From positions 1 to 54,463 of IMG/VR virus record IMGVR_UViG_3300037419_001463: DNA of 54,463 nt; one strand, 5' to 3'. Within the stretch, counting starts at the first letter, position 1, and every line of letters starts with the position of its first letter. Origin of the DNA: a virus. The translations under genes were made by a program, and so were the position numbers. Below, one piece after another: positions 7,404 through 26,752 of the stretch. The notes below the pieces were generated by a model, which ran no database searches, had not been told where the DNA came from, and worked only from the letters and a program-made list of their open reading frames with translations.

Positions 7404-7441
7404 AAAAAAGAGAGAGTCACGTCCGAGTGGACGTGACTCTC
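7404..7441 (-). terminator. rho-independent terminator (13-bp perfect stem, 4-nt loop, T6 tract on the minus strand)
   Basis: Stem arms GAGAGTCACGTCC (7412..7424) and GGACGTGACTCTC (7429..7441). A6 at 7404..7409 on the plus strand gives a U-tract downstream in minus sense. Confidence 0.75.
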
Positions 7442-12797: not shown

Positions 12798-12823
12798 TTT
12801 CTGTTGGTGTGGTGGTGGAGAGA

Positions 12824-13090
12824 TCAGGCCGTGGCCCGGGCTGCTGCCTTGGCTTCACGACGTAGCAGCTGTGCCCGCTCGGAGGCGGTCATGCCACCGA
12901 GCACGCACGGCTGCACGCTGCCGGTGCGACGCTCGAACCGCAGCGTCGAGGCCAGGCAGTCGTCACGCTCGGGGCACAGGCCGCAGAGCTTCTTGGCCAG
13001 CTGCTCCGGCGTGCTGTTCTTCTTCCCGAACCAGGTGTCCGGGTTGTTGTTGTGCGGCTTGCAGGGCACGTCACCGTCAGTGATGTACAC
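12824..13090 (-). CDS. whiB: WhiB-family iron-sulfur transcription factor
   Basis: Four Cys including CGLCPERDDC, a VLGGMT turn and a basic C-terminus. 88 aa. GTG start overlapping the RuvC gene. Confidence 0.75.
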   Translation of the reverse strand: MYITDGDVPCKPHNNNPDTWFGKKNSTPEQLAKKLCGLCPERDDCLASTLRFERRTGSVQPCVLGGMTASERAQLLRREAKAAARATA

Positions 13091-13580
13091 GCCAGCCCCG
13101 TCCCTCGAGGTTGTCCTTGACCACCTCGGTCAGCAGCCGGTTCAGCTCCTGGTGCTTGAGCATCCCGAGCAGCGCGATCCGCGCGGCCGAGCGCAGGTCC
13201 TGGTGGTGCGTGGTGGTGGAGAACTTCCACACACCGAGCAGCTCCATGAGCGGCTGGCGCACCACCTTCTTGACCCCGGTGTTGTTGAGCACCGTGCCGC
13301 GGGTCTCGCGCCTCATGTCGGCTACGGCGGCCAGCATCTTCGGGTCGGTACCGAAGTGGGACCGAGGCTTGTAGTCCTCGATCCAGATGAACGGTTGGGG
13401 CAGAACGCCCAGCCCGAGGATGGCGCTGCTCTTGATCCATTGGCCAACTGCGTAAGCGTTGGGCCCGGTGATCGCCTCGTGCTGGAGCAGCACCTCTCGG
13501 TGCCGAGGCACGAAGACGAACCGAACCACGCCGGTGTGGACCAGGCCTGGGTCCACCCCGATGACGTGGGTAGTCTGCAT
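13077..13580 (-). CDS. RuvC-like Holliday junction resolvase
   Basis: Motifs IGVDPG, WIEDY and HHQDLRSAARIAL, in the order expected for the RuvC fold. Confidence 0.7.
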   Translation of the reverse strand: MQTTHVIGVDPGLVHTGVVRFVFVPRHREVLLQHEAITGPNAYAVGQWIKSSAILGLGVLPQPFIWIEDYKPRSHFGTDPKMLAAVADMRRETRGTVLNNTGVKKVVRQPLMELLGVWKFSTTTHHQDLRSAARIALLGMLKHQELNRLLTEVVKDNLEGRGWRVHH

Positions 13581-13660
13581 TCTGTGTTCCCTTCTCGAAC
13601 ACGTGGATCCAGCCGGCGACCTTGTGTAGTGGTCGCCGGCTGGATCTGTGAGAGGTATGA

Positions 13661-15802
13661 CTACTTGGTGTAGCGGTAGTCGTCCTTGATCTCGGCCGCG
13701 AGCGGGAAGCTCTGGAACGGACCGGGATCGGACATCATCTTGCCGAGCTGCAGCTTGGCCTCAGGCAGGCTGAGCGCAGCAACGGTTGGTTGCCAGTCTG
13801 CCACGATCTCATCGTGGAACTGACCGACGAGCTCGATGTTGCTGTGCCACTTGGCCCACTCGTGGACCTGGCGCAGCACCATGAAGAACAGCTCGCGGCA
13901 GAGAGACTGGGTCAGGATCCCTGCCAGCTTCCCGCCGTAGATCTGGTAGAACCTGATCTGCTTTGTCTTCTGATCCCGGTAGTTGTTCTTCCACAGGTCA
14001 CCCGTCTTGCGGTCGCTCGGCTTGTAGTAGCAGATGTTGCGACCTCGGACGTACACCCCGTGGAAGTACCGACGTAGCACAGCAGTGCCAGTCGAGTCGA
14101 CCACCCAGATCGCCAGTGTCTGAGCGTTCGGGTGCTGGCGTTGCAACGACTTGGGCGATGGGACCAGGTGCATCTTCAGCACAAAGCCGTCCGGCCAGGC
14201 GAGCCGGTCGACCGTGAGCTTGCCCTCGACTACGTCATGGAGCATGCGATCGAGGTCAGCCCAGTAGTCAACGATCTTCGGGTTGGAATCCCGCCAGTCG
14301 TAGACGACCTTCGCCGCCTCGGCTTCGGTCAGCTTCACACCCATGCCGGCTGCGAAGTTGCCGACCGCGTCGGCGCCCGCCTGATACCCACAGGACAGCT
14401 CACCCACCTTGCCGAACAGACGCTGGTCCTTGGTGACCACGTCGTACGGCGTGCTGAACTGGCGGCTGGCTGCGACCTTGTACAGGTCCTTGCCCTGGCG
14501 GAAGGCCTCGAGCTTCCAGTCCTCCCCTGCCTGCCAGGCCAGGCCTCGGGCCTCGACCGAGCTGAAGTCACCAACGATCAGTGACCCCTGCGGGTGGCTG
14601 GCGGTGAAGCACTGGCGCAGGTTGCGCGCCAGCTGCTCGTTGTCCCAGTCGACGTCGACCTCGTGGAGTTCCTCCACATCGTCGATCTCCGCACCCAACC
14701 GCTTGAGGTTCTGCATCTGAACCGACCGCCCTGTGGTGCGCAGCGTCTGCGCCGCACCGCAGTGCAGGTACTGGTCCTTCAACCGGTGGGTGCCGTCGCC
14801 CATGTCGAGCGCCGTGTCGAGGATGACCTTCAGCTTCTTCAGACTGGAGCCACCGAGAATCTGCTTGGTGCGCAGGAGATCGGCCACCGCGATGTAGTTG
14901 CTGATCTGATCGGTGGTCAGATTGGCTGAGTTCTCCAGCTTCTTCTTGATGGCTGCGAGGTAGCGAGTCACGTGCGCTTCGTCGAAGCTCGTGGCCTTGA
15001 CTCCACGCGCAGCACACCACTCCTTCATCTGCTTCAGGCTGTTGAGGTTGAAGTCGTACTCCAGGGTCTTGGGGTTGAGCTTCACCCCGTACCTGGCACG
15101 GAACTCGGCCAGCGCCTGGTCCTGGTTCTCCAGGTAGCGGCGCTGCATCTCCTCTACCAGCGGGATGTCCACGCACCAGCCGGTGCGGTTCATGTCCATG
15201 GTGATCGCGGCGTAGCCGAGCTCGCTGGTGGTGAGCCCAATCTCGTTCTGCTCGACGATGGTCAAGCTGAGCTCAGCGTCGAGCTCGCAGTACTCACAGA
15301 ACTTCGCCCACTCTTGCGGGTGGTCATCGATCACCTGCGGGTCGAAGGCCGGAGACCCGCTGTCCTCCTGGTACTTGCCCGGGATGGAGAACAGCTTGAT
15401 CAGGTCCTTGCCCTCCTCCATCTTGTTGATGTTCAGCAGCTGTGGTGCTGCAGCCTCCAGCCTCGACGCAGCGCCGGCGGCACGTGCCACCACTGCCGAG
15501 TCGATGAACCGACTGGACGGGTACTCCAGCCCCAGGTGGTCGAGCACCGCCTGCTCGAACGGCGCGTTGTGCGCCACGATGTAGCGCATTGCGAGCACCC
15601 CCTCGAGGTCACGCCTCGAGGCACGCCGGTCGGAGACGAAGTCGAACGTCCGCTTCACCAGACTGCCCTGACCTTGTGGCCGCCAGGCCACACTGCCGAT
15701 CAACGGCTGGAACGTCTTGTGCTGGGTGTACCTGGCCAACCCATGAGTGGGCAGGTCCTCGGCACCGTAGGTCTCGAAGTCGAGACCGATGTACTCGGGC
15801 AT
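13661..15802 (-). CDS. family A DNA polymerase with 3-5 exonuclease domain
   Basis: Exo I IGLDFETYG, motif A DFSSVEARGLAW, motif B RLFGKVGELSCGYQAG, motif C GQFHDEIV. 713 aa. Confidence 0.9.
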   Translation of the reverse strand: MPEYIGLDFETYGAEDLPTHGLARYTQHKTFQPLIGSVAWRPQGQGSLVKRTFDFVSDRRASRRDLEGVLAMRYIVAHNAPFEQAVLDHLGLEYPSSRFIDSAVVARAAGAASRLEAAAPQLLNINKMEEGKDLIKLFSIPGKYQEDSGSPAFDPQVIDDHPQEWAKFCEYCELDAELSLTIVEQNEIGLTTSELGYAAITMDMNRTGWCVDIPLVEEMQRRYLENQDQALAEFRARYGVKLNPKTLEYDFNLNSLKQMKEWCAARGVKATSFDEAHVTRYLAAIKKKLENSANLTTDQISNYIAVADLLRTKQILGGSSLKKLKVILDTALDMGDGTHRLKDQYLHCGAAQTLRTTGRSVQMQNLKRLGAEIDDVEELHEVDVDWDNEQLARNLRQCFTASHPQGSLIVGDFSSVEARGLAWQAGEDWKLEAFRQGKDLYKVAASRQFSTPYDVVTKDQRLFGKVGELSCGYQAGADAVGNFAAGMGVKLTEAEAAKVVYDWRDSNPKIVDYWADLDRMLHDVVEGKLTVDRLAWPDGFVLKMHLVPSPKSLQRQHPNAQTLAIWVVDSTGTAVLRRYFHGVYVRGRNICYYKPSDRKTGDLWKNNYRDQKTKQIRFYQIYGGKLAGILTQSLCRELFFMVLRQVHEWAKWHSNIELVGQFHDEIVADWQPTVAALSLPEAKLQLGKMMSDPGPFQSFPLAAEIKDDYRYTK

Positions 15803-15813
15803 CTGCCCTCCCT

Positions 15814-16530
15814 TCAGAGCGTGAGGATTGCGTCCTCGTCGGTGTGGTCCGGGTAGAACATCGACATCAGGACCGGGCAGAACGGCCGGCCCTTCAGCCC
15901 ACGTCCATGTGGGTTGGCAGCACAGAACGTGCAGTGGTCACCCGGCCCGAAGGTCGTGTCACCTGCTGCGATCGCCGCCTCGGTGGCGAGCGCGTCGGCC
16001 TTGAACTTGGCCAGCACGTTGGTGTCTGCGAACCACGAGTCGAAGTTGTCGATGGCCGGCTGCATCACGTGGAGCGTGACGCCCTTGGCCTTCGGTGCCA
16101 GGTCGGCGAAGGTCACCGCGTAGTACAGGAGCTGGGTGTTGTTCACCGCCGAGACTGGGATCTTTCCCCACTTCCCGTCGAGGATGTGCAGCTCGTCCTG
16201 GGTGGCGAGCGCGTAGTCGACGGTGGTCTTCGGCTTCGACTGAAGCCACTCGACCTCTCGTGTCTCCTCGACCAACACCGTGGTGAACCTGCGCAGCGCA
16301 CGCACGTCGGCCACGTACTCGAGGTACTTGATCAGCTGACGCTGCCGAGCAAGCGGCAGGTGCATGATCGGCTCGACAATCTCGTGCATCTTGGTGCCGT
16401 CGTTTGCGGCGTTGACCGCGGATGGGTCTTCGACTGGTGCAACCCAGTGCGGGATGGCTGCGCCCAGATCAGCCGATGCGTGGCAGGCCATGTGTCGGCC
16501 TGCCACGCTGGCGCTGAACCGCTCAGCCAT
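15814..16530 (-). CDS. PD-(D/E)xK nuclease, Cas4/DUF2800-like
   Basis: HILDGKWGK (D-x-K), QLLYY (QxxxY), C-terminal CTFCAANP...FCP plus an N-terminal Cys. ATG 16530 is preferred; TTG 16548 is an alternative. Confidence 0.55.
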   Translation of the reverse strand: MAERFSASVAGRHMACHASADLGAAIPHWVAPVEDPSAVNAANDGTKMHEIVEPIMHLPLARQRQLIKYLEYVADVRALRRFTTVLVEETREVEWLQSKPKTTVDYALATQDELHILDGKWGKIPVSAVNNTQLLYYAVTFADLAPKAKGVTLHVMQPAIDNFDSWFADTNVLAKFKADALATEAAIAAGDTTFGPGDHCTFCAANPHGRGLKGRPFCPVLMSMFYPDHTDEDAILTL

Positions 16531-16903
16531 TGCTCTTCTCACGAGCAACCAACTCGAACGGGAACTCGTCGGTCGGGTTGTCCTTGTTCACCGCCAGCAG
16601 CTGCATCAGCGGGAACGTGCGGCTGCGGATCTCGACGGACCAGGAGCCGAACCCGTCGGTCACGACGAGGACGTTCATGATGGGCTGCGCCTTGCGCAGC
16701 GTGTTGATCAGGCAGCCCTCGAAGTAGACGCCGGGCTTGACTGAAAGTGTGAAGGCCGTGTCGTCGGTGAACAGCAGGTTCACGTCCGGCACCGGGCCGT
16801 TGTCGTGCGTCGGTCGCACACCTCGGATGGTCTTGCCCTCGAGAGCAGCCAGCCATTCGGTGTCACTGATCGCGGAGGTGGGGTCCTGGATCTGCGTCGT
16901 CAT
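16523..16903 (-). CDS. hypothetical protein (126 aa)
   Basis: ORF track; preceded by the conserved CTCCACCA-GAGAAAG leader. Confidence 0.65.
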   Translation of the reverse strand: MTTQIQDPTSAISDTEWLAALEGKTIRGVRPTHDNGPVPDVNLLFTDDTAFTLSVKPGVYFEGCLINTLRKAQPIMNVLVVTDGFGSWSVEIRSRTFPLMQLLAVNKDNPTDEFPFELVAREKSNG

Positions 16904-16940
16904 GGAGCGTCTTCTTTCTCTGGTGGAGTTGCGTCCTGTC

Positions 16941-17016
16941 CTCCCCGCTTGGGGAGGCCCGGCCCACTCGGACGCATGAGTGGGCCGGGCCGGTCTTGCA
17001 CGGGCGTGCTAGGCCC
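16941..17016 (-). other. three consecutive intergenic hairpins, the last with a CTAGCAC loop
   Basis: 16941..16956 is CTCCCC/GGGGAG. 16956..16991 has a 14-bp stem. 17002..17016 is GGGC-CTAGCAC-GCCC in minus sense. Confidence 0.6.
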
Positions 17017-17019
17017 TGG

Positions 17020-17712
17020 TCAGTCGGCGAAGATCTCGTCCTCGTCGATGGACACGCCGCCGCCGAACCGCTCGTCGTCCGCCTTGAAGACGGCGACGCT
17101 GACGCCGGCGCTGAGGCCGACGCCCTTGCCCGGGTGGTAGACGTAGAAGTTCATCGTCACCGCCACCTGGGCACCGGGGTACATCGAGTGCACCGTCCGG
17201 TTGATGGGCCGGATCACCGGGAACGAGAGCAGGTCCGGCTCCGGCACGAGCAGCTCGTCCTCGTCGTTGACGATGGCCTTCTGCTCGATGTCGACACCTG
17301 CGTTGCCGAGCACCTTGACCGCGGCCACGCCGGCCGGCGCCATCTTGGCGGTCGACTCGGACAGCGGCTTGAACGGCAGGTTCAGCATGCCGGCGAAGTC
17401 CGGCGTCTCGATCTGGTTGATGAGCATGTCGGCCTCGGCCTGGGTGAGGATGTCCTTCTTCTCACCGGCGGCCTCGCGCGCCACGCACCAGCGGATGTAG
17501 TCGAGGGCCGCGGCCTTCACCTTGTCCAACTGGTGCTGCTCGACGACCAGCTCGAAGTAGGGCTTGGCCTCGGCCACGGACTTGGCCGGGTACTGCCCCT
17601 TCTGGCTGCGGTCGTAGGACTCCTGCGCCGTCCACACCGGCCAGCTCAGCCGGCCGTAGCAGGTGACGTTCTTGACCTTGGTGTTGCTCAGGTCGAGGGT
17701 TGCAGTGGTCAC
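17020..17712 (-). CDS. ssDNA-binding protein candidate (gp2.5/DUF2815-like) with acidic C-terminal tail
   Basis: GTG 17712 lies 9 nt after GAAAGGGG. C-terminus DEDEIFAD. Sits beside the PD-(D/E)xK nuclease and PolA, as in other phage replication modules. Confidence 0.45.
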   Translation of the reverse strand: MTTATLDLSNTKVKNVTCYGRLSWPVWTAQESYDRSQKGQYPAKSVAEAKPYFELVVEQHQLDKVKAAALDYIRWCVAREAAGEKKDILTQAEADMLINQIETPDFAGMLNLPFKPLSESTAKMAPAGVAAVKVLGNAGVDIEQKAIVNDEDELLVPEPDLLSFPVIRPINRTVHSMYPGAQVAVTMNFYVYHPGKGVGLSAGVSVAVFKADDERFGGGVSIDEDEIFAD

Positions 17713-17768
17713 AGGGGTGACCCCTTTCTGTTGGTGGAGAGTGCTGAAAATTTTTTCTGCTATCCCGG

Positions 17769-17805
17769 GTGTGGCCCCGCCTGCTTCCACCAGGCAGGGC
17801 CACAC
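17769..17805 (-). terminator. intergenic hairpin immediately after the vWA gene stop
   Basis: Arms GTGTGGCCC and GGGCCACAC plus an inner 5/6 stem, followed in minus sense by an A6T4 tract. Confidence 0.4.
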
Positions 17806-17807
17806 GA

Positions 17808-18794
17808 TCAGGACATGACGTAGTAGCTGCTGCCGATGAGCAGCGGCTGCACGTCAGCGGCCAACTGCCCGACGCACTGCGCCAGGAAGGTCGGCTTGTT
17901 GACCAGGCTGATGTCGAGCACCTGGTCGATGCGGCCGGTGCACTGCTTGAGCACACCCTTCGCCTCCGGGCTGGAGTCGTAGTCCGCGATCGTGATGACC
18001 ACGCCCCAGTCCTTCTCGAACAGCGGAGCCAGCTCCTCGTAGTGGGTGCCGCCGTACTCGCCGACCGACAGGATCGTGTCGACGTCGTAGGTCCCCGGCT
18101 CCCAGTACCGGCAGGTGTTGGACACCAGCGCGAAGTGGGCGTTGGCCTGGTAGCTGAGCGCCACCACGTCCTCGATGATGCGCTGGACGGTGCCGGCGTT
18201 GACCGACCCCGAGTCGTCCAGGATCACCAGGTTCTCCGCCTGCCTGGCGTGCGTGACCGAGGCACGGAAGTCCCCGAGCGTGGGCCGCTTGGCGTTCAGC
18301 TTCATCATGTGGCCGAACACCATCGAGCCCTGCTTGCCGGGCAGCCGGTTGAGCACGGCGTCGTTCAGCTTGGCGGCCACGTCCTTGATGGACTGGGCGA
18401 CCGTGACCTCGAGCTGCTCCCACACCTGCGGCAGGATCTCGCCGGCCGGGACCACGGCCTGCCCGGTGACGGCATCACCGAACGAGACCTCGTAGTCGTC
18501 GACGTCGACGATGTCGCAGATGTAGTCCTGCAGCTCGTTGCTGTGGTCCTGGCCCTCGGCGAACAGCGCCTCGGACAGGTCCGACTTCAGCACCTGACGG
18601 AGCAGGTCGGACAGCTGGTAGGCGTCCAGGTCGTAGACCTTGCCGAAGAACAGGATGGTCTCCGTGTCCGGCAGCAGAGCCTTGAGCGTGGCCAGGCTGA
18701 ACCTGAGCCCCGGCTTGATCTCGACCAGGTCGAGGCTGCGCTTCAGCTCAGCTGAAGACATCTTCGTTGAGGATGGCATCGAGGTTGTCGTCAT
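17808..18794 (-). CDS. von Willebrand factor A (vWA) domain protein
   Basis: MIDAS motif LVILDDSGSV (DxSxS). 328 aa. Start is ATG 18794, 18779 or 18761. Paired with the upstream AAA+ gene. Confidence 0.65.
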   Translation of the reverse strand: MTTTSMPSSTKMSSAELKRSLDLVEIKPGLRFSLATLKALLPDTETILFFGKVYDLDAYQLSDLLRQVLKSDLSEALFAEGQDHSNELQDYICDIVDVDDYEVSFGDAVTGQAVVPAGEILPQVWEQLEVTVAQSIKDVAAKLNDAVLNRLPGKQGSMVFGHMMKLNAKRPTLGDFRASVTHARQAENLVILDDSGSVNAGTVQRIIEDVVALSYQANAHFALVSNTCRYWEPGTYDVDTILSVGEYGGTHYEELAPLFEKDWGVVITIADYDSSPEAKGVLKQCTGRIDQVLDISLVNKPTFLAQCVGQLAADVQPLLIGSSYYVMS

Positions 18795-19716
18795 CCGTAG
18801 TGGTTCCCTTCTCGTTGCGGATCTCCTCCATCTCGACGAGCTGAAGGTTGAGATCCCGGTTCAGCCGCTGGACCGGGGTGAGCTTCTCGACCGGCAGCGA
18901 CTTGGCCCGGTCGAGATATGAGCCGGGCAAGGTGGCTGCCTTGCCGTCGAGCAGGAAGACGTACTGCGGCTTGCCGTCCTGCATGGCCCGGGCGTTGTTC
19001 ATCGCCAGCAGCTCCTTGAGTGCAGCCGAGTGCACGTCCCGGAGCTTGGCCTGCCCGATCAGGTTGCGGATGCTGCGGCCCTTGACCAGAGCCGGAGCAC
19101 TGGACTTGTTGGCCAGGCTGTCGAGCACGTCATACATGGGCAGCACCTCACTGGTGAGGAGCTGGTCCATCTCCATGCTGTCCCGCATCTTCGGCAGCAG
19201 GCCGAGCTCGTCGACGACGACCTGGGCCAGCTGCTTCTTGGCGCGCTTCGACTTCCGTGGATCTGGCACCGGGATGTGGTGCAGCCTGTCCTCGAGCGCC
19301 TTGTCGTAGGCGACGGTGGAGTTCGAGGCAGCCAGCATGAACACCGGTGGCAGGTCCAGACCAGCCACCGACCTGCCGGTGATGATGTCGAGCAGCCCGT
19401 TGTACACCTCCGGGAATCCCCGGAGGAACTCGTCGAAGAGGATGATGTCCTTGGGCTTGAGCTGCGTCCACGTAGTGGCGTGCAGCATCTTGAGGATCAT
19501 GTCCTCGCCCGAACCGTTAGGCATCTGAACGCCTTCGAGGTCGAGCGGGTTGAGCCTGCTCACGTTGATCACGTGCACGTTGACACCGACCAGCTTGGCC
19601 AGCTCCCGGACCACGGTGCTCTTGTTACTGCCCGGTGGACCGAACAGATGGGGCACCGGGCTCGTGACACCCGTGGCCATGGCGGTGACGTAGAGCTTGA
19701 GGATTGTCTCGAGCAT
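18748..19716 (-). CDS. MoxR/AAA_5-like AAA+ ATPase
   Basis: Walker A FGPPGSNKST and Walker B IILFDEF. 322 aa. Confidence 0.7.
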   Translation of the reverse strand: MLETILKLYVTAMATGVTSPVPHLFGPPGSNKSTVVRELAKLVGVNVHVINVSRLNPLDLEGVQMPNGSGEDMILKMLHATTWTQLKPKDIILFDEFLRGFPEVYNGLLDIITGRSVAGLDLPPVFMLAASNSTVAYDKALEDRLHHIPVPDPRKSKRAKKQLAQVVVDELGLLPKMRDSMEMDQLLTSEVLPMYDVLDSLANKSSAPALVKGRSIRNLIGQAKLRDVHSAALKELLAMNNARAMQDGKPQYVFLLDGKAATLPGSYLDRAKSLPVEKLTPVQRLNRDLNLQLVEMEEIRNEKGTTTDDDNLDAILNEDVFS

Positions 19717-19763
19717 GTGGTTCCCTTGTCTGAGTCACTTTTCTATGGTGGAGAGATGACTTG

Positions 19764-19796
19764 GAGGGCGGCACCTGTGCTAGAGGTGCCGCCCTC
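19764..19796 (-). other. 13-bp-stem hairpin with CTAGCAC loop
   Basis: GAGGGCGGCACCT-GTGCTAG-AGGTGCCGCCCTC on the plus strand. Lies between the stop at 19805 and the TCTCTCCACCA leader of the AAA+ gene. Confidence 0.6.
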
Positions 19797-19804
19797 TCTT
19801 GTTG

Positions 19805-20293
19805 TCAGGCGCCGACGGTGGGCACGCCGTCGGTGAGCACGCCGTCGAACGCCGGGTCTCCGGCCGGGCCGTCGAACGCCGGCAGCGGGGTGTCCGCCTC
19901 GAGGATCTCGAGCTGATCGTCGCCGACCCAGATCACCCGGCCGGTGCCCCGGTTCTGCTCGATGAGCCGGAGCACGATGCTGTCGTGCGTCAGCTTGACG
20001 AGCTGCTCGGGCTGGGGCGCCTGGCCCTCGACCGCCTCACGCAGCACGACGTAGCTGGCCGGGTCGGCCGGCCGCTCGAGGGTCTTGGCCAGGGTCTCCG
20101 ACGCCTGGACCAGCGGAGCGAAGAACTCCTCGACCGCGGCGTCGAACGCCTCGGCCGCCTGGTCGTAGGCCTTGTCGGCGTTGACCTCGTCCCACTGGGT
20201 GGAGTCGAGGATCGCCTGGCCCTTGTTGCCGAACACGTCGGAGCCGCCGACGAGCACGCGGTTGCCGACGAGACGGGTGGTGGTGAACGTCAT
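19805..20293 (-). CDS. hypothetical protein (162 aa)
   Basis: ORF track; preceded by the CTCCACCACAGAAAGG leader. Confidence 0.65.
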   Translation of the reverse strand: MTFTTTRLVGNRVLVGGSDVFGNKGQAILDSTQWDEVNADKAYDQAAEAFDAAVEEFFAPLVQASETLAKTLERPADPASYVVLREAVEGQAPQPEQLVKLTHDSIVLRLIEQNRGTGRVIWVGDDQLEILEADTPLPAFDGPAGDPAFDGVLTDGVPTVGA

Positions 20294-20362
20294 GGATGAC
20301 GCCTTTCTGTGGTGGAGTGGTTGATCAACCGATGAACGGTGGCGTGCGGACAGAGCGCCCTA

Positions 20363-20530
20363 CTAACGCGGGGCACCCTCTCCGTACACCGACACGGCGC
20401 CGATGACGCCGGCCTCCTTGGCCTTCCTGAACAGGCTGGCCAAGTTGGGGACAGATGCCTGTTGGATCAACGAATCCATCGTCTCATCCGGCACCGACAC
20501 TGCCCCTGCTTCTGCAGTGGTGTCGCTCAC
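20363..20530 (-). CDS. hypothetical mini-protein (55 aa)
   Basis: GTG 20530 overlaps the upstream stop (GTGA). GC3-rich. Not in the track. Confidence 0.4.
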   Translation of the reverse strand: MSDTTAEAGAVSVPDETMDSLIQQASVPNLASLFRKAKEAGVIGAVSVYGEGAPR

Positions 20531-20712
20531 GAGTGAACCCCCTGCAGTCCTGATCCCTGGTTCTCGAAGATCACCAGGTCCACGTCAACGGCGTAGCCGC
20601 TGGCCGTGGTGATGGTGATGCCTCGGCCGGTGGCCTGTGCGGCCGCCAGCTTCTGGATCACCTCGTCCCTGTCCGCCGAGGACGGGACGTCGATCACGAG
20701 CTGGAGCCTCAT
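20527..20712 (-). CDS. hypothetical protein (61 aa)
   Basis: Internal ATG 20712 preceded by GGAAGGGG, overlapping the upstream stop (ATGA). Confidence 0.5.
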   Translation of the reverse strand: MRLQLVIDVPSSADRDEVIQKLAAAQATGRGITITTASGYAVDVDLVIFENQGSGLQGVHS

Positions 20713-20831
20713 CGTCTCCGCCCCTTCCTGTCGTCCGGGTGCAACCCGTTCTTCATGAAGTCCCGCACGGCGTAGGCCAGGATCGGCCAGCCGAGCAGGA
20801 GCAGATGCCTGGCCCTGAGCGGCGGCATCAT
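20709..20831 (-). CDS. hypothetical mini-protein (40 aa, one hydrophobic helix)
   Basis: ATGA overlaps at both ends. Sequence MMPPLRARHLLLLGWPILAYAV... Confidence 0.35.
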   Translation of the reverse strand: MMPPLRARHLLLLGWPILAYAVRDFMKNGLHPDDRKGRRR

Positions 20832-20902
20832 CGTCGTGACTGCCATTCGAGCGTGGCGCAGACACCGATCAAGAAGCCGATGATGAAGACGACGCCGATC
20901 AC
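20828..20902 (-). CDS. hydrophobic micro-ORF (24 aa)
   Basis: GTG 20902 overlaps the upstream stop (GTGA). Sequence VIGVVFIIGFLIGVCATLEWQSRR. Confidence 0.3.
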   Translation of the reverse strand: MIGVVFIIGFLIGVCATLEWQSRR

Positions 20903-21702
20903 TCGAGTGCCTCCATGATCGTGTCGAGGCTGTCCTTGTAGTCGATCTTCTTGGCGACCTCGACGAGCTGGTCGATGTTGTCCAGCTCGATGTGGTCAGC
21001 GATCGCTGCGTAGAACTGGCCGAGCGTCTGCTTGTCCTGGTCGAAGTGTGTGGACAGGTAGAGCCACGCCGCCCGGTAGCCGGTGGCGAGATCGTCCTTG
21101 ACCAGGCTCATGTCGTAGCCGTACTGGTAGTACTTGGCGTACCGACCCATCTCGCGCAGCCCGTTGTACTGGCTGATGAATCCGTTGCGCCAGTTGCTCC
21201 GCTTGTTGGGCATCATCGGCAGAGCGATGGACTCCCAGCTCCCGTACTTGATGGCGTCGAGCTCTCGCTCCGGGAACAGGTACGGACGCATGTCTCGGAA
21301 CGTGTCGGTCTCGAGATCCCAGCCCACACCGAGCAGTCCGAAGTCGAACGACTCGAGCACTTCGGCCAGGCTGGTGGCAGCGTGACCTTCGGTCAGCTTG
21401 TACACCAGGTTCGTCTCGATCCCCCCCGGGCTCATGAGACGAAGGCTGTTGGTGTGCCAGTTCTTCATGCCGTACCGAAGCCAGCGCTCCCACACCCGTG
21501 AGAATCGGTCGTCCAGCTTGTAGCCCTGGTCGATCAGGTACTGACCGACCGAGATGAGGACCTGCTGCGTCGGGCAGAACAGGTCGACATCGTGGTAATC
21601 ACCGATGCCGTACGTGTCTGCTGCCACGAGGGAGCCGGCCAGGAAGACCGGCCTCCCCCGCAGCAGCGAGCGCACGTCGGCGATGACAGCCGACGTGGAC
21701 AT
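20899..21702 (-). CDS. nucleotidyltransferase-fold protein (267 aa)
   Basis: FLAGSLVAADTYGIGDYHDVDLF fits the minimal NTase signature G[GS]-x(9-13)-D-x-D. Confidence 0.5.
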   Translation of the reverse strand: MSTSAVIADVRSLLRGRPVFLAGSLVAADTYGIGDYHDVDLFCPTQQVLISVGQYLIDQGYKLDDRFSRVWERWLRYGMKNWHTNSLRLMSPGGIETNLVYKLTEGHAATSLAEVLESFDFGLLGVGWDLETDTFRDMRPYLFPERELDAIKYGSWESIALPMMPNKRSNWRNGFISQYNGLREMGRYAKYYQYGYDMSLVKDDLATGYRAAWLYLSTHFDQDKQTLGQFYAAIADHIELDNIDQLVEVAKKIDYKDSLDTIMEALE

Positions 21703-21703
21703 G

Positions 21704-21985
21704 TCAGACCGCCGCGGCCTCGTCGTCCTCGACGACGGTGAGCGAGGGCTTGGACACGGCCAGGTCCGGCGTCCGCTCGACGATGATCACGAGCTCGGCA
21801 TCGATGCCGTCGAGCTTGGTCTGGCGCTCCTCGATCTGCTCGACGAGCTTGGCCCGCTGCACGTGCAGCTCGTCGTACCGCTTGACGTCCGCCGCCCGGG
21901 CCTTGGCCTCGAGCGCGTCGAGCGTGGCCTTCGCCTTGGCGATGCGCTCCTCGGGCGTGAGCGTCCTGCGCTTGGTGTCACCCAT
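21704..21985 (-). CDS. coiled-coil protein (93 aa)
   Basis: Internal ATG 21985 preceded by the TCTCCACCATCGAAAGG leader. Heptad-like K/E/A-rich sequence. Confidence 0.55.
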   Translation of the reverse strand: MGDTKRRTLTPEERIAKAKATLDALEAKARAADVKRYDELHVQRAKLVEQIEERQTKLDGIDAELVIIVERTPDLAVSKPSLTVVEDDEAAAV

Positions 21986-22031
21986 GTCTGGGTCCTTTCG
22001 ATGGTGGAGAGGTGAAGGTATGAACTGGCAT

Positions 22032-22070
22032 CCGCCGGCCCGACTGAGTGCAAGACAGCCGGGCCGGCGG
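22032..22070 (-). other. 11-bp-stem hairpin whose 17-nt loop contains CTTGCAC
   Basis: Arms CCGCCGGCCCG and CGGGCCGGCGG. Lies between the stop at 22081 and the leader of the 21985 gene. Confidence 0.5.
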
Positions 22071-22080
22071 AGATCGTGGG

Positions 22081-22449
22081 TCAGCGGACCTCGGCCTTCG
22101 CCTTGGCGACGCTGTCGCCCCAGGTCTGGCCGCTGTCCTGCTTGCCCTGGGCTGCGCCCAGCAGCCGACGAGTCCTGCCGTCGGTCTTCAGCTGAGGGAG
22201 GTACTCGTCGAGAGACCACACCCCGATGCCCTCGAGCTCACGGATCAGCTCGAGGTCGACGCCCTTGTAGACCAGGACGTGGCCGACGATGCAACCCGGC
22301 TCGTTGCCGTGCAGGTAGAGGCACTCGTCGTGGCCGTCGGGGCCCCTGTCGTAGACGAAGTCAGCGCCCTTCTCGGCGACGGCTCGGTCGAGCAGCTCGA
22401 CCGCCTCGTCGTAGGTGAGCTCGAGGGTCTCGATGGTTGCAGTGGACAT
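22081..22449 (-). CDS. hypothetical protein (122 aa)
   Basis: ORF track; preceded by the CATCTCTCCACCATCGAAAGGG leader. Confidence 0.65.
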   Translation of the reverse strand: MSTATIETLELTYDEAVELLDRAVAEKGADFVYDRGPDGHDECLYLHGNEPGCIVGHVLVYKGVDLELIRELEGIGVWSLDEYLPQLKTDGRTRRLLGAAQGKQDSGQTWGDSVAKAKAEVR

Positions 22450-22495
22450 GCTGAATCCCTTTCGATGGTGGAGAGATGCGGGTTGCGGTCGAGTG

Positions 22496-22843
22496 CTAGT
22501 CGACCTTGAAGTTCAGGCGCCAGCTGTCGTGTGGTACCCGGGTGAACACGAACTCCCAGCTGAAGCCGAGGCAGTTGGTGTAGCTACGCACCTCCTGCTT
22601 GGTCTCGGGCATACGACCCGAGGCCGGGATCACCCGGTACTCGAGGCGAGTGCCGCGCGAACCGAGGATCTCGTTGACGTGGTAGCGGGAGAACCCCTTG
22701 TGCAGTCCCGTCAGGTGGGTCAGCGTCGGGCAGTGGCCGTCGGGCTCCGAGGCCTGGGCCTCCTTGGCCAGGCCGATGGTCGTGAGCACGACCAAGAGCA
22801 AGGCGACACCGAGGACTGCGCCTCGAGTGAGCGGGTGATTCAT
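22496..22843 (-). CDS. secreted or membrane-anchored protein (115 aa)
   Basis: N-terminal hydrophobic segment GAVLGVALLLVVLTTIGLA followed by KEAQA. Confidence 0.6.
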   Translation of the reverse strand: MNHPLTRGAVLGVALLLVVLTTIGLAKEAQASEPDGHCPTLTHLTGLHKGFSRYHVNEILGSRGTRLEYRVIPASGRMPETKQEVRSYTNCLGFSWEFVFTRVPHDSWRLNFKVD

Positions 22844-22864
22844 CAGAACTCCTTCGTTGAAGGC

Positions 22865-23095
22865 TCATGCGTCCTGGATCAGGAAGCACAGCCGTGGATG
22901 GGCCTTGCCCTTCTGCACGTAGTGCAGATCGCAGAGCGGGCAGATGCGCCAGCCCTTGGGCAGGTTGACCACCGGTGACGGTGGTGCTGGTGGATGAGAT
23001 CGACCACTCGAGATCGAGGGGTTGATCTTGGACCGGATGGCCTGCCGGTTCTTCGGAGTCGGCAGTGCGCACTCGCAGGTAGATGCGGTGATCAT
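22865..23095 (-). CDS. Cys-rich small protein (76 aa)
   Basis: ATG 23095 overlaps the upstream stop (ATGA). CEC ... CPLC pattern. Confidence 0.45.
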   Translation of the reverse strand: MITASTCECALPTPKNRQAIRSKINPSISSGRSHPPAPPSPVVNLPKGWRICPLCDLHYVQKGKAHPRLCFLIQDA

Positions 23096-23307
23096 CACTC
23101 GACTCCGAGCTCGGCGAGCTTGGCCTTGATCTTCTGTGCAGCAGGGTTGGCCATCCCCTTCCACAGGTAGACCTGCTGGTTGGTGGTGAGGTAGCGGCTG
23201 AGCGAGGACTCAGCTGCGACCCGCCGGCCGACCACGCCTGCGGCGTGACGGTGGTGGGTCTCCGAGCTGTGCCCCGCTTGACGCTCACTGGTCAGGTAGT
23301 CGTTCAT
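23095..23307 (-). CDS. hypothetical protein (70 aa)
   Basis: Internal ATG 23307 preceded by the CCTCTCCACCATCGAAGGG leader. Confidence 0.5.
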   Translation of the reverse strand: MNDYLTSERQAGHSSETHHRHAAGVVGRRVAAESSLSRYLTTNQQVYLWKGMANPAAQKIKAKLAELGVE

Positions 23308-23426
23308 CGTGCGTCCCTTCGATGGTGGAGAGGTGGCTGCGCGTCCGATGTCCCCGGTGCTAGCGGGGGCATGCAGCTGATGCCGGCCCACCCGAAGGTG
23401 GCCGGTGATGAGTCCGGTGCTACGGA

Positions 23427-23783
23427 CTAGATGTGGTTCGGACCCGCGCGCACAGGTGTGCACGGGTCGAAGACCCTGCCGTCATGAGACTCGGTCGCCA
23501 CGAGGTGGCGGACGGAGCGAGTCTCCAGAACGTGACGGACTGGTGAGGTCGGCTCGATGGCCGGTGAACTGTGGTCCAGGTGGTTGGCGACATCGTCGCC
23601 ACTCCCCCGGTCGGTGTGCTCGATGTTGGTCGACACGCACGGGACCGGCTGGTACGGTCTGACAAGCTCGGCCTTGCGCGCGAGGCGCATGTCGTCGCCG
23701 ATGCTGTAGCCGGTGGCACCCATGAAGCAGAGGGCGACAGCGATCGCTGCTAGTACAGCTAGCGCTCGCCTCCCCGCCTGCAT
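23427..23783 (-). CDS. membrane or secreted protein (118 aa)
   Basis: Internal ATG 23783. N-terminal RRALAVLAAIAVALCFMGA. The upstream part of the 193-aa track ORF looks non-coding. Confidence 0.5.
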   Translation of the reverse strand: MQAGRRALAVLAAIAVALCFMGATGYSIGDDMRLARKAELVRPYQPVPCVSTNIEHTDRGSGDDVANHLDHSSPAIEPTSPVRHVLETRSVRHLVATESHDGRVFDPCTPVRAGPNHI

Positions 23784-23901
23784 GCCGAGAGTTCTACACC
23801 CGGAGTTTGCCGTCCCCGAAAGTGGGTAGGCAGATCCATTCGAGAACCACTCGACCGGGCTACGGATCCGTAGCCCAGCCGGGTGATGTCGCTGTGTCCG
23901 A

Positions 23902-24024
23902 TCAGTGGATGATGAACCACCAGTCCAGGTCGGGCATGAGCACGGCGAGCATGAGCGCGCACACCGCCGTGCCCCAGGCCAGAATCCTGAGGGCACGGCA
24001 GTAGTCACGCTGCCACTCGTTCAC
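23902..24024 (-). CDS. hydrophobic mini-protein (40 aa)
   Basis: GTG 24024 overlaps the upstream stop (GTGA). Contains LRILAWGTAVCALMLAVLM. Confidence 0.35.
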   Translation of the reverse strand: MNEWQRDYCRALRILAWGTAVCALMLAVLMPDLDWWFIIH

Positions 24025-24371
24025 AGCTCGGGGCAGTCGGGCAGCATGGTGCCGCCGAGCACGCGCTGTGCGTGTGCCACGTTGGCGTTCTCGACCTGAC
24101 CGAGCAGGTTCTCGAGCTCGCCGGCCAGGCGCTGGTTGTATCCGACCAGGTCCTGGTTGTTGATGGTCAGCTGGCGGTTGCGGATCACCAGCCGCTGGCT
24201 GTTGTTGACCTCGAACTGCAGCATGCGCTGCAGGTTGTGCACGTCCGCGATGAGCTGGTGGTTGCGGCTCTTGGTCAGGACCAGCGAGGCCCTGGTCTTG
24301 CGCCGGTCCTCGCTCACCGTGAACAGCGAGGCGAGCAGGACAGCGATGACGAGCAGGCAGACGATGAGCAT
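24021..24371 (-). CDS. membrane-anchored coiled-coil protein (116 aa)
   Basis: Internal ATG 24371 preceded by the CATCTCTCCACCACCTGAAAGG leader. N-terminal MLIVCLLVIAVLLASLF, then a Q/N/L-rich helix. Confidence 0.6.
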   Translation of the reverse strand: MLIVCLLVIAVLLASLFTVSEDRRKTRASLVLTKSRNHQLIADVHNLQRMLQFEVNNSQRLVIRNRQLTINNQDLVGYNQRLAGELENLLGQVENANVAHAQRVLGGTMLPDCPEL

Positions 24372-24698
24372 GGCGTGCGTCCTTTCAGGTGGTGGAGAGA
24401 TGCAAAGAGCCGGCCACACTCACGAATGAATGTGACCGGCTCGGTCTGAACTCTGAAGCCCACACACCTTGGTGGCCCCTTACTCCTCCGGAGAGGAGCC
24501 ACCAGGCGTGGGCGTTATCTCTTGGATACTCCCTTAGAAGCTACTTCTTTTCACTCCCTTGGTTTCCCAATTCCCCAAAGAGTTTCTTCTCTTGGGATCT
24601 ATGCGTAGATCTGGCGCAAGCGTGCGCCGCACCGCAACGGCGGTGGTCGACAGCGTCGACTGAGTGAACCCGAACCAACCGAGTCCACTCCCCCACTG

Positions 24699-24971
24699 TT
24701 ACACGTGTGACTGACCAGGATCGGGAAGATCCTCCAGCCTGAAGGGCTTCGGCTGGAACTGACGCAGCAGCTCCTCACCTTCGGCGAGGCGACGCTGGTG
24801 CTCGTGCCGCTGCCGGCTGAGGCCGAGCTCGTGCTCGAGCATCAGGTCAACGGCGCGACCTACCAGCCAGGAACGGCTGCGGTCCTGCAGCTGCCGCAGG
24901 TCATCGAGACCGCGGAGCTGGAACTCGTCCAAGCGGACCGAGGTGGGTAAGGCGGGCTTGCGCTGGGTCAT
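24699..24971 (-). CDS. ribbon-helix-helix (CopG/Arc/MetJ-type) DNA-binding regulator
   Basis: TSVRLDEFQLRGLDDL...RSWLVGRAV reads as a beta strand plus two helices. ATG 24971, or 24992. First gene of the minus arm, next to the repeat array. Confidence 0.55.
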   Translation of the reverse strand: MTQRKPALPTSVRLDEFQLRGLDDLRQLQDRSRSWLVGRAVDLMLEHELGLSRQRHEHQRRLAEGEELLRQFQPKPFRLEDLPDPGQSHV

Positions 24972-24991
24972 GTCTGCGTCCTCCGGTGCCA

Positions 24992-25357
24992 ATAGTCACC
25001 TGACGTGAGGGTGACTACGTTCGACTACATCGTAGTCACCAGGTCCGACAGTGGCATCTGCCCAGGTCAGAGCGGGTGTAGCGGTAAAGACGACCGCCCG
25101 AATGGTTGTCGATCACAACCATGTAGTCACCCTGTAGTCACCCCCCAGGTGACTACATGTTTCCGCAGGTCAGAGGCGGTTTTCCGGTGATGTAGTCACC
25201 TAGTCACCCCCAAGAATTGGGACGAAGGGTCAAGAAGAGTTACGAAGTTCAGGGTGACTACGTGACTACAACGGGAAAAAAGGGCCTCTGACCTGGGCAA
25301 ACATGTAGTCACCCCGGGGGTGACTACGGGGGTGACTACCGGCCCGAGGGTGACTAC
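24992..25357. repeat. array of about 15 copies of GTAGTCACC / GGTGACTAC, including two inverted ~55-bp composite elements
   Basis: Forward copies start at 24992 (variant), 25032, 25123, 25134, 25192, 25201 and 25305. Reverse copies start at 25010, 25148, 25253, 25262, 25319, 25331 and 25349. Composite units lie at 25123..25177 (+) and 25284..25339 (-). Confidence 0.9.
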
Positions 25358-25547
25358 ACCCGCGTGGTCGGGAGGATGGACTCCTCCCGGCGACACCCAC
25401 TCCCCTGTCACTCGAGACCCCGTGACCAATGAGACGGTGTCTCTCGTGACCGCCACCGACAACTGGCAGTTGTCAGAAGATGAGCTCTCCCGGCCGCGCA
25501 GGCCTCGACCGGGTCGGAGGCCCAGGCGCTACCGGGAAAGCGACGAG

Positions 25548-25802
25548 ATGGCCGGCATGGTGCGCCGCGTGACCAGAGCCATGGTCAGGCGCGCAGCAGC
25601 CGGAGATCTCCATGCACTCACAGCTCTGAGGCAGATGCGTGAGTACGTGGACCAGGCGACGAGGGCTGCAGCTCAAGAGCTGCACGACCCCATCGAGTGG
25701 TCGGGTGGTTACAGCTGGACGGTGATAGCCCAGGAGCTGGGCATCAGCCGGCAAGCGGCACGCCAGCAGTTCGGACTCACCAAGTCTGACGAGTCAGACT
25801 GA
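25548..25802 (+). CDS. helix-turn-helix DNA-binding protein (84 aa; start may lie further upstream)
   Basis: HTH SWTVIAQELGISRQAARQQFG. ATG 25548 lies 8 nt after GGAAAG. The N-terminal part of track ORF 25320.. is a translation of the GTGACTAC repeats (VTT...) and is not credible as coding. Confidence 0.55.
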   Translation: MAGMVRRVTRAMVRRAAAGDLHALTALRQMREYVDQATRAAAQELHDPIEWSGGYSWTVIAQELGISRQAARQQFGLTKSDESD

Positions 25803-25988
25803 TCACCGCGCTACCGCTTGGACAGCCGAGTCATAGAATCCGGCAACTCCAAAAGAAACTGCATGCGTACGCACACCTTGTCGTATGACGATCGGCCGCT
25901 CAGTATCCTGAGCGCAAGCGTCACGCGACTAGGCGAACGTGTTCATGCCAGCTGTTGTGTCAGCGTCATCACTGCGTGCACATGCACT

Positions 25989-26024
25989 AAAAAAGAGTTG
26001 CCTCCCGGCTGTTAACCGAGAGGC
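25989..26024 (-). terminator. rho-independent terminator of the orphan minus-strand gene
   Basis: Stem GCCTCCCGG/CCGAGAGGC (1 mismatch) at 26000..26024. A6 at 25989..25994 on the plus strand gives a U-tract in minus sense. Confidence 0.65.
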
Positions 26025-26030
26025 ATCTCC

Positions 26031-26273
26031 TCACGCTGCGGCGTACTTGTTCAGCATCCGGCGGTAGGCCTCGACCACGACTCCGTCGTTGTCGTTGTCC
26101 TTCGCCTTGGCGATGAGCTGCTCGAGCAGCTGCATCGTCTTGATGCGTTCCTGGTCCAGGTCCAGGTCCGCTCGTGCCACCTGCTGGTTGGCGTACTGCT
26201 TCACGACGCCGTTCATCGGGTCAAGCCCTGCGATCATGCTCTGCGTGATTGCGTCAGCAAACGGAGATGCCAT
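26031..26273 (-). CDS. hypothetical helical protein (80 aa), orphan minus-strand gene inside the plus arm
   Basis: Internal ATG 26273 lies 7 nt after GGAAGGA. Has its own terminator. The upstream part of the 162-aa track ORF runs through AT-rich non-coding DNA. Confidence 0.6.
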   Translation of the reverse strand: MASPFADAITQSMIAGLDPMNGVVKQYANQQVARADLDLDQERIKTMQLLEQLIAKAKDNDNDGVVVEAYRRMLNKYAAA

Positions 26274-26280
26274 TGGTGCG

Positions 26281-26470
26281 TCCTTCCATAGATGGGAATT
26301 CCAAAAAGTCAATCGAAACAAACGAAACAGGTTTCTAATTTGCATAGATGGTAATTGGATACCTAATACCATATATACATATATAGGGGGTATAGATTGT
26401 TTTGTTTGTTTCTTTTGTATATGTTCCAACCTCACTGAAAAGTTTTCTACATTCGTGACATCCGAAGCAT
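26281..26470. promoter_or_regulatory. AT-rich island with direct and inverted repeats (divergent promoter region and/or replication origin candidate)
   Basis: Sharp compositional drop relative to the flanks. CATAGATGG[G/T]AATT at 26287 and 26343, with ATAGATTG at 26392. GAAACAAACGAAACA (26315) is inverted against TGTTTTGTTTGTTTC (26398). An (AT)n tract lies at 26371..26385. Confidence 0.6.
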
Positions 26471-26752
26471 TCGATGCACGAGGTGGCCGGGTTCGGCCCC
26501 GACTTCGCCCTCGTGACACCCGCTACGGGCTGACTCCCCCGCTCCCCCGGTCTCCGGCGGTCTCCCGCCGCCACAGCCTCCTCGCTGGGTCGTAGGTCGG
26601 CGCAGGGCTCGAAGGCCGTCAGGGCCCGATTCCCGACAATCGCCAGTTGTCAGCCGGGCTAGGTAGAGGCCCGATCTACACCTACCCTTGCTGTTCAGCA
26701 GCCCCGATCGGCGGCCGCGCCTCATACGGTCACTCGATCAGGAGGCGGCGGC

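Follow-up and report, generated by a model that had tools for sequence, protein, structure and literature searches.

Why would the loop of a hairpin stay constant when the stem beneath it changes completely, and what would read such a structure? The question is raised by the early region of an uncultured phage genome, IMG/VR record IMGVR_UViG_3300037419_001463 (positions 1 to 54,463; this whole 54,463-bp stretch is referred to below as the window), in which a preliminary description had pointed to intergenic hairpins with unrelated stems and the loop CTAGCAC, and had suggested that they are read in single-stranded form. We examined these hairpins, their counterparts in related phages and the giant virion protein of the same phage. 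Our results lead us to favour, tentatively, a reading in which the hairpins would be sense-strand RNA signals that punctuate the early transcription units and are read by the phage's own transcription machinery, possibly by a putative RNA polymerase domain of the giant protein.

Six hairpins present a common loop at the ends of early genes

The window is a circularly permuted whole genome (G+C 61-71%) whose left arm, between ~26.3 and 6.8 kb, is transcribed in the leftward direction. Five hairpins after stop codons and a larger sixth had been described on the sense (minus) strand of this early arm, and we confirmed all six, each at or just after a stop codon. H1 (17002-17016; GGGC-CUAGCAC-GCCC, 4 bp) directly follows the TGA of an SSB-like gene (17020-17730); with an RNA energy of -5.1 kcal/mol and a competing GCAC/GUGC pairing in its context, it is the weakest of the six cases. 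H2 (19764-19796; 13-bp stem, loop CUAGCAC, -27.4 kcal/mol) lies between open reading frame (ORF) 19805-20293 and the AAA-ATPase gene. H3 was found to have a stem of 6 bp rather than the 5 bp first given (22487-22505; GGUCGA-CUAGCAC-UCGACC, -6.9 kcal/mol), and the UAG in its loop is indeed the stop codon of ORF 22496-22843. H4 (23352-23368; CCCCG-CUAGCAC-CGGGG) has 5 bp, and in H5 (23411-23428; AGUCCG-UAGCAC-CGGACU, -8.0 kcal/mol) the first two bases of the 5' arm are overlapped by the UAG stop (23427-23429) of the upstream gene. The sixth hairpin, H6, originally placed at 22032-22070, extends over 22031-22071 and consists of a 16-bp stem beneath a 9-nt loop, U-CUUGCAC-U; its single mismatch is a G.U pair on the sense strand and A.C on the opposite, template strand. 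CTAGCAC occupies four of the hairpins (on stems of 4, 13, 6 and 5 bp that bear no relation to one another), and H5 and H6 display TAGCAC and CTTGCAC, respectively. The loop TAG stands in no consistent reading frame with respect to the upstream ORF (0, +1 or +2).

The hairpins differ greatly in predicted stability, with RNA energies of -5 to -8 kcal/mol for the small ones compared to -27 and -36 for H2 and H6. The small hairpins are too weak to block exonucleases, and they adjoin strong hairpins: H1 and H5 lie just upstream of one and H4 just downstream, with H3 standing alone, whereas in H2 and H6 the strong hairpin itself bears the motif at its tip. The neighbours of H1 are two stable hairpins at 16940-16991 on the minus strand (a 14-bp stem with loop AUGCGUCC and a 7-bp stem with loop AAGC), downstream of H1 and ahead of the leader at 16921-16928 that is discussed below. 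Between H5 and H4, a hairpin with a UUCG tetraloop (23383-23405, minus strand), a closing C-G pair and one bulged stem base was read directly from the sequence; it is not resolved in the minimum-free-energy structure of the complete intergenic region.

As had been stated, none of the six hairpins is followed by a U-tract, whether judged by terminator calling on the sense strand, which called 0 of 6 as canonical intrinsic terminators, or by direct reading. Canonical U-tract terminators are present elsewhere in the genome, at 26025-25999 after the first small leftward gene and at ~7412-7441 at the end of the arm, indicating that the early-arm hairpins belong to a different class. The mycobacterial polymerase needs the U-tract for termination (PMC3993855).

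The loop motif is marked by its placement and not by its number

The heptamer CTAGCAC gave a divided answer. Its copy number is not enriched (5 copies compared to 4.6 expected genome-wide), but every one of the 5 copies is on the minus strand and 4 of them form the 7-nt loops of perfect stems (4 bp or longer), a placement with a binomial P of ~6e-9 given a per-site chance of 0.006 for such a stem. Likewise, no 7-nt loop recurred four times in any of 200 dinucleotide shuffles. The signal is therefore one of placement rather than of copy number. The fifth copy (6282-6288, minus strand) is outside any hairpin, in non-coding sequence where the two arms meet.

The tetramer CTAG is four-fold depleted across the genome (23 copies compared to 94.9 +/- 8.9 in dinucleotide shuffles), and 5 of the 23 copies are inside these hairpins. 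We also observed that 10 of the 23 fall between 17.0 and 26.7 kb, mostly in non-coding structured sites. Two further CTAGC copies stand 4 nt apart at 23750-23762 on the minus strand (GCTAGCTGTACTAGC), in the intergenic region before gene 23723; they can base-pair with each other within a longer predicted hairpin, an arrangement unlike the loop motif. GTGCTAG, the full complement of the loop, occurs nowhere else in the genome, so that kissing with a trans RNA is unsupported.

Each hairpin is followed by a leader motif

The preliminary description held that each hairpin precedes a conserved leader of the next gene at a variable distance, and this was borne out for all six. The leader CTCCACCA is present in 13 copies compared to 3.0 expected, ten of them on the minus strand of the left arm between 12813 and 24397, where it takes the form (A)UCUCUCCACCA-N2-4-GAAAGG. 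Eight of these ten (24390-97, 23323-30, 22466-73, 22002-09, 20310-17, 19746-53, 17732-39 and 16921-28) lie just upstream of a gene preceded by an intergenic gap, at a distance of 15-19 nt (in one case 29 nt) from the start codon and with a long Shine-Dalgarno sequence (GAAAGG) on their immediate 3' side; the remaining two (13214-21 and 12813-20) are less securely assigned. No copy is found ahead of right-arm genes. Not every leader unit carries the loop motif: those at 24371 and 17730 have a non-CTAGC hairpin, and that at 20293 has none. The leader is also common to the related phages L134, L135, L139, L168, L172 and L173 whatever their loop type, suggesting that hairpin and leader form a recurring unit in which loop motif and leader are independent of each other.

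Cluster K mycobacteriophages reportedly carry start-associated sequences, a short motif directly upstream of the start codons of a subset of genes, and the extended form of these is said to be preceded in some cases by inverted repeats with conserved arms and a varying spacer. In the window it is the arms that vary and the loop that is conserved.

The hairpin before the AAA-ATPase gene is conserved by covariation

Judged by its proteins, the window is an uncultured actinobacterial phage distantly related to the Microbacterium cluster EK/Burro podophages. Its DNA polymerase shares 47% identity with those of Microbacterium phage Burro, the cluster EK phages and Arthrobacter phage MissAmericana, and the gene order of Burro is that of the window apart from circular permutation. 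Megablast of the region against phage genomes found no DNA-level match among GenBank phages; the same phage was recovered at 99.97-100% identity in a JGI metagenome and a Logan assembly. Homologues of the AAA-ATPase (n = 1,207 at E <= 1e-30) indicate a large phage group.

With relatives drawn from IMG/VR, JGI, ENA, Logan and NCBI assemblies, we found that H2 corresponds in position to a hairpin which 14 related phages conserve upstream of the AAA-ATPase gene, and that it is the orthologue of this hairpin. In their alignment 99% of cells are paired and 10 of 15 pairs show compensatory changes; none of 500 shuffles was as good, and slid registers fell to 42-63% paired. The pairing and its covariation across 14 phages argue that this hairpin is an old, selected structure.

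Conservation of the loop was mixed. It is of CTAGC type in 6 of the 14 phages (CTAGCAC in the window, CTAGCC in L134, L173 and L188, CTAGCCA in L135 and GTAGCA in L171) but differs in the others; GTCACCT, ACGCAAC, ATCCCCC, CTCATCA, TGATGCAG and TGTCCCG are found in other phages at a similar level of protein identity, and the loop in Burro is TTCGG. The five relatives with CTAGC-type loops, whose AAA-ATPases are 66-81% identical, have them on differing stems, with additional copies on unrelated stems: L173 contains CGCCTG-cCTAGCCa-CAGGCG and a 10-bp stem with loop CTAGTCC, and L188 a bulged stem with loop CTAGCCA. Across these five relatives, hairpin loops containing TAGC number 7 on the sense strand compared to 1.55 +/- 1.18 in 100 shuffles (maximum 5), and 2 on the antisense strand.

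Mismatches within the stems point the same way. By a hand tally from the hairpin list, sense-strand mismatches in the group's long intergenic hairpins with stems of at least 14 positions comprise 10 G.T and 2 A.C, and in all hairpins of at least 10 pairs the respective counts are 16 and 10. This asymmetry, which includes H6, and the strict orientation of the motif suggest that the structure is read as RNA, or at least on the sense strand. Taken together, the unrelated but paired stems, the constant loop, the sense orientation, the covariation in 14 phages, the recurrence of CTAGC loops on differing stems in five relatives and the tolerance of G.U over A.C support the suggestion that the structure is read in single-stranded form.

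Attempts to extend the motif further were uninformative. Scans of sequence collections for CTAGCAC-N10-40-CTCCACCA and for the leader returned chance matches only, from unrelated and mostly low-GC contigs; four loci came from the exact leader scan, and these, scanned for loop and leader motifs only, gave nothing. An Rfam 15 covariance-model search of 12000-27000 likewise produced only chance-level matches up to E = 10. We considered a mimic of a tRNA anticodon arm as well, given that the loops in the window fit the anticodon-loop pattern (Y-U-NNN-R-N) and that the leader CUCCACCA resembles a tRNA 3' end. This candidate was rejected: ARAGORN found no tRNA, no acceptor 5' strand was seen, and the loops CUAGCC, CUAGCCA and CUAGUCC of the relatives break the anticodon-loop rule.

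The giant virion protein carries a beta-prime-type catalytic signature

The right arm is transcribed rightward and wraps past the end of the window. It starts with an ORF of 4,597 aa (26753-40546, plus strand) that is ~31% identical to its homologues in Burro, the cluster EK phages and MissAmericana; the Burro protein is virion-associated and was described in 2020 as lacking similarity to the N4 polymerase (PMC7302621). Alignment of the proteins of the window, Burro, MissAmericana, Akoni and ArMaWen revealed an invariant D-x-D-G-D ~40 residues after an invariant R-x-P...G-S, which is how the catalytic barrel in the beta-prime subunit of two-barrel RNA polymerases is laid out: NRAPTLHRLGIQAF...IQLHPLVCAAYNADFDGD of the E. 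coli subunit corresponds to TRDPQDQAGSYQ...LQISASIRPALTADHDGD in the giant protein. The signature reads R881-x-P883-x39-D923-H-D-G-D927 and is encoded at 29393-29533 on the plus strand (29393-29401 and 29519-29533).

A full HMMER scan of 1.84 billion representatives retrieved 167 clusters of homologues, of which 119 are full-length (4.0-4.9 thousand residues). In the 120 full-length sequences made up of these representatives and the window protein, the catalytic motif is present without exception (DFDGD in 55, DYDGD in 31 and DHDGD in 28), and R881, P883, D923, D925, G926 and D927 are 100% conserved. A profile of this segment built from 35 sequences and compared with all PDB sequences matched the phiKZ and AR9 beta-prime chains at E = 0.00095-0.0017, followed at lower rank by bacterial beta-prime, cyanobacterial gamma and eukaryotic RPA1 chains. 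Altogether, 32 of 36 PDB matches were largest subunits of RNA polymerases, with the catalytic motif aligned in every alignment that we inspected. A local search of E. coli beta-prime gave a conditional E of 5.6e-6, and neither reversed decoys nor the N4 polymerase (gp50) was matched. Profile comparisons also aligned the motifs with those of E. coli beta-prime (P = 0.011) and of gp96 of Thermus phage P23-45 (P = 0.038), and the giant protein contains the pattern [RK]xP-x20-100-DxDxD that defines two-barrel virion polymerases of the P23-45 type. Searches of the giant protein against Pfam, PHROGs and, directly, PDB were uninformative, and a word-indexed protein search returned nothing.

These results make it quite likely that the giant protein includes a catalytic barrel of RNA polymerase type. 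The invariance of the signature and the beta-prime profile matches further suggest that the giant gene of the cluster EK/Burro phages is probably a virion RNA polymerase fusion; our literature search found no prior report of the giant protein as an RNA polymerase. A candidate for the second barrel, FGDKMVLEWNGMKY around K3015/K3024, which resembles the GDK...K motif of the beta subunit, was rejected, since its family profile found no match in E. coli beta and the GDK varies within the family.

The early hairpins compared with the terminators of phage P23-45

The only mapped polymerase of the two-barrel virion kind is that of P23-45, in which gp96 is fused to a giant tape-measure protein and transcribes the pre-early genes from an 11-nt promoter, TTATTCCTTTA (PMC10770324). 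Seven 3' ends were mapped at the same end of that genome, with a common 26-nt motif that the authors took as evidence of an unusual termination mechanism (PMC10770324). The motif is a GC hairpin, ...GGGC-G(N)YUA-GCCC... (CTAGCC/TTAGCC), followed by a T-run, and the next pyrimidine-rich promoter begins 6-50 nt after each terminator hairpin (PMC10770324 and its supplementary tables). The early region of the window has the same order of parts, namely a small early ORF, a CTAGC hairpin, a short spacer, a pyrimidine-rich 11-12-mer (CTCTCCACCA where P23-45 has its promoter) and the next ORF, and the giant virion protein of each phage has its catalytic motif near residue 800-900. A related observation was made in Burro (L001, ~18490-18554) and Araxxi (L003, ~19120-19181), where a U-tract terminator on the minus strand after a small pre-early gene has CTAGCC atop its 5' arm (TCTAGCC-ATTT-GGCTAGG), recalling the P23-45 terminator motif.

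In the reading that we favour, a hairpin after the stop codon would be an old feature of the phage group, and in the lineage of the window its loop, (C)UAGC(A/C) of YUNR type, would have become a sequence-specific recognition element. The motif would be displayed atop a large hairpin (H2 and H6), on a small 'presentation' hairpin beside one (H1, H4 and H5) or alone (H3). Its candidate reader is the two-barrel RNA polymerase domain of the giant virion protein, or a partner factor, which may cause pausing or termination or set the 3' end of each early transcript; the CTCTCCACCA motif, lying 10 to ~75 nt further on, would serve the next gene as its restart signal, either a promoter or a 5' leader. 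Three elements of this reading are inferences: RNA as the molecule that is read, the virion polymerase as its reader, and termination or 3'-end formation as the result. The two-barrel virion polymerase of crAss-like phages transcribes single-stranded but not double-stranded DNA, and the early transcripts of these phages have no common motif (bioRxiv 10.1101/2020.03.07.982082); a structure-dependent signal is hence plausible for such enzymes, albeit without precedent.

Several findings weigh against this reading. L172, L189, L139 and L168, at similar protein identity, keep the hairpin and often the leader with other loops, so the loop motif is not essential to the hairpin's basic role. The leader, for its part, could be purely a translation element. 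The polymerase assignment draws on one barrel only, the candidate second barrel being without a match to E. coli beta, and a single-sequence structure model of the giant protein was unusable (pLDDT 44.6). The likeness to P23-45 also has its limits: position after early ORFs and the pentamer are common to both, but P23-45 has conserved stems and a T-run, whereas the stems in the window are unrelated and a T-run is absent after all six hairpins, and the P23-45 motif straddles the end of the loop and the 3' stem, whereas that of the window lies wholly in the loop. The P23-45 3' ends were mapped, whereas the window hairpins are known here from sequence; the two polymerases resemble each other in the catalytic motif only; and CTAG is so common across P23-45 that the match of the pentamer could be due to chance.

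A bolder proposition is that EK/Burro-like podophages (at least 167 protein clusters at 50% identity) inject an unrecognised two-barrel polymerase within a virion protein of ~4,500 aa, and that the CTAGC-loop hairpins are the terminators or hairpin-dependent start sites of that enzyme. We regard this as possible but doubtful; if true, the CTAGC core common to the hairpins and the unrelated P23-45 terminators would represent a conserved signal class for virion two-barrel polymerases. Start and stop recognition by injected phage polymerases is known in detail only for N4 and is nearly unknown for two-barrel virion enzymes, to which P23-45 contributes one unexplained terminator motif and the crAss-like phages no common motif. 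A loop-specific, stem-independent signal in a second, unrelated polymerase-bearing group would thus offer a directly testable handle. Furthermore, the giant gene of the cluster EK phages, a long-standing puzzle in a widely taught phage collection, now has a concrete predicted function, and the cultured relatives Burro, Akoni and ArMaWen are available for experiments.

Alternative readers of the hairpins

The hairpins might instead be binding sites for a phage-encoded regulator acting on transcripts of the host polymerase, as boxB does in lambda; a small protein on the loop would then change how often transcription passes the neighbouring strong hairpins, how stable the mRNA is or how well the next gene is translated. 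The energies of the 4-6 bp hairpins are typical of protein-binding hairpins, and as in lambda nut sites we see small RNA hairpins, which would be recognised by loop and not by stem, upstream of terminator-like ones: H1 and H5 immediately precede strong hairpins, and H4 closely follows one. A loop specific to the lineage is what a co-evolving phage factor would lead one to expect, and the early-arm genes are small, unique and unannotated. Nevertheless, we consider such a regulator unlikely. The boxB identity, which had been put forward for these hairpins, was rejected: boxB has a 5-bp stem, a 5-nt GNRA-like loop, two nut sites per genome, a boxA partner and the N protein, in contrast to the heptamer loop CUAGCAC in five intergenic regions found here, rather than in one or two operon-proximal sites, with no Rfam match. 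The ten early proteins searched gave no informative Pfam or PHROGs match, none to an RNA-binding, antiterminator or N-type family, and no boxA-like partner was seen, though it was not searched for systematically. No protein was found whose presence tracks the loop motif, apart from a weakly co-occurring WhiB-like gene (12824-13090, minus strand), which does not encode an RNA-binding protein. Homologues of this gene are present in L135, L171 and L173, the CTAGC-positive relatives whose contigs reach the region, and none was seen in L005, L170 and L189; the correlation is weak and probably just phylogenetic.

Endoribonuclease processing, with cuts at or beside the loops of a polycistronic early RNA, comparable to those between the genes of T7 early RNA, and with the hairpins protecting the upstream messages, is quite unlikely. 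It would account for five intergenic sites in ~6.4 kb of early operon, located after stop codons and lacking U-tracts. Bacterial RNase III ignores the apical loop and needs ~20 bp, a length that 4 of the 6 hairpins do not offer with stems of only 4-6 bp, and an RNase III site of the T7 early type was rejected accordingly. Mycobacterial RNase E prefers purine-N / C-N-U, to which the loop AG-CAC bears a partial likeness; the match fails at +3 and again in the loops CUAGCC and CUAGUCC of the relatives. Moreover, one would not expect sister phages to differ in a site for a host nuclease.

DNA hairpin promoters of the N4 style, another identity raised in the preliminary description, would be extruded or single-stranded during genome entry and allow the virion polymerase to start the next gene. 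The N4 promoter pairs a conserved heptamer with non-conserved inverted repeats (PMC4496689), and the same pattern is seen here in the early region of a podophage whose giant virion protein is probably a polymerase; a gene lies downstream of each hairpin, and the single-strand dependence of the crAss-like enzyme would suit such a promoter. We judge this very unlikely on several grounds. The N4 promoter has a stem of 5-7 bp, a 3-nt purine-rich loop, conserved stem bases (-11, -10 and -8) and fixed spacing to a conserved +1 base (PMC4496689), whereas our loops measure 6-9 nt and the stems of 4-16 bp share no base and give no fixed geometry to a start; with the six elements aligned by loop, no downstream base is conserved and the 3' arm varies by 12 nt. 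N4 has three promoter copies at the genome end and a T7-like enzyme, neither of which holds in the window: the giant protein lacks similarity to the N4 virion polymerase, its segment profile misses gp50, no such Pfam or PDB match was obtained, and its signature is instead of two-barrel type. In addition, the small hairpins reach only -2.7 to -5.4 kcal/mol as template-strand DNA, the H6 mismatch is A.C on the template strand and G.U on the sense strand, the leader units with another hairpin or none would be left without the element, and the hairpins overlap stop codons.

There may also be no dedicated reader, the CUAGC-type loop being a favoured, well-folding loop that was passed on and multiplied in this lineage, on hairpins that serve only as generic mRNA 3' stabilisers. 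Many 7-nt loops in the relatives likewise start Y-U-N-R, and sister phages function with other loops. This too has only a slight chance of being correct, since an identical 7-mer occurs on four unrelated stems despite four-fold avoidance of CTAG, four of the hairpins are too weak to stabilise anything, and the loop was kept as stems turned over at 66-81% protein identity. Finally, a DNA-level role on the lagging-strand template, whether as priming signals for the phage primase-polymerase or as recombination hot spots through which early gene cassettes are shuffled, in the manner of the promoter-early stem-loops of T4-type phages, is highly improbable: for a replication fork setting out from the iteron region near 25 kb, the lagging-strand template would be the sense strand, and the genes flanked by H3-H6 lack homologues in relatives as in a hyperplastic region, but the motif is confined to the first 7.5 kb of the ~19-kb arm, unrelated stems give no homology for recombination, and the small DNA hairpins are marginal.

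Other elements in the window

The small genes flanked by H3-H6 (22081-23723, minus strand) are mostly without a homologue in any related contig, and the replication genes downstream are conserved across relatives. By this comparison, 22081-23723 represents a hypervariable early region bounded by hairpin-plus-leader units.

At the head of the left arm, an AT-rich block with CTATACCCCCTATATATGTATATATGG (26300-26430), conserved across the phage group, precedes an 80-aa leftward gene (26273-26031, minus strand), the counterpart of Burro gp26, which ends in the canonical U-tract terminator at 26025-25999; gene and terminator look like a separate pre-early unit. A ~40-nt non-coding element, CTAGTCGCGTGACGCTTGCGCTCAGGATACTGAGCGGCCG (25893-25932, minus strand), is nearly invariant among phages whose proteins are 30-60% identical, and is also found in Burro, MissAmericana (L002), Araxxi, L004-L006 and L135. 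It forms a 7-bp hairpin with a compensatory change (CGCTCAG/CTGAGCG compared to CGCTCGG/CCGAGCG) and a G-N-T-A loop, and may function as a small RNA, as a promoter or as an origin element.

At least 12 direct or inverted copies of GTAGTCACC(C), together with paired CTGACCTGCGGAAACATG repeats, surround the rightward ORF 25320-25802 (~25000-25390) and recur near 53.4 kb (~53400-53440). Relatives have their own versions, TGTAGACACCC in L005/L006 and GGTAACG in Burro; iterons and regulator sites are both possible roles for these repeats. An imperfect palindrome (17743-17760, minus strand) precedes the SSB-like gene in every relative examined; its A-run/T-run centre (GCAGAAAAAATTTTCAGC) is constant and its arms vary. 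A second palindrome of this type follows the terminator at the end of the arm (~7389-7400, minus strand).

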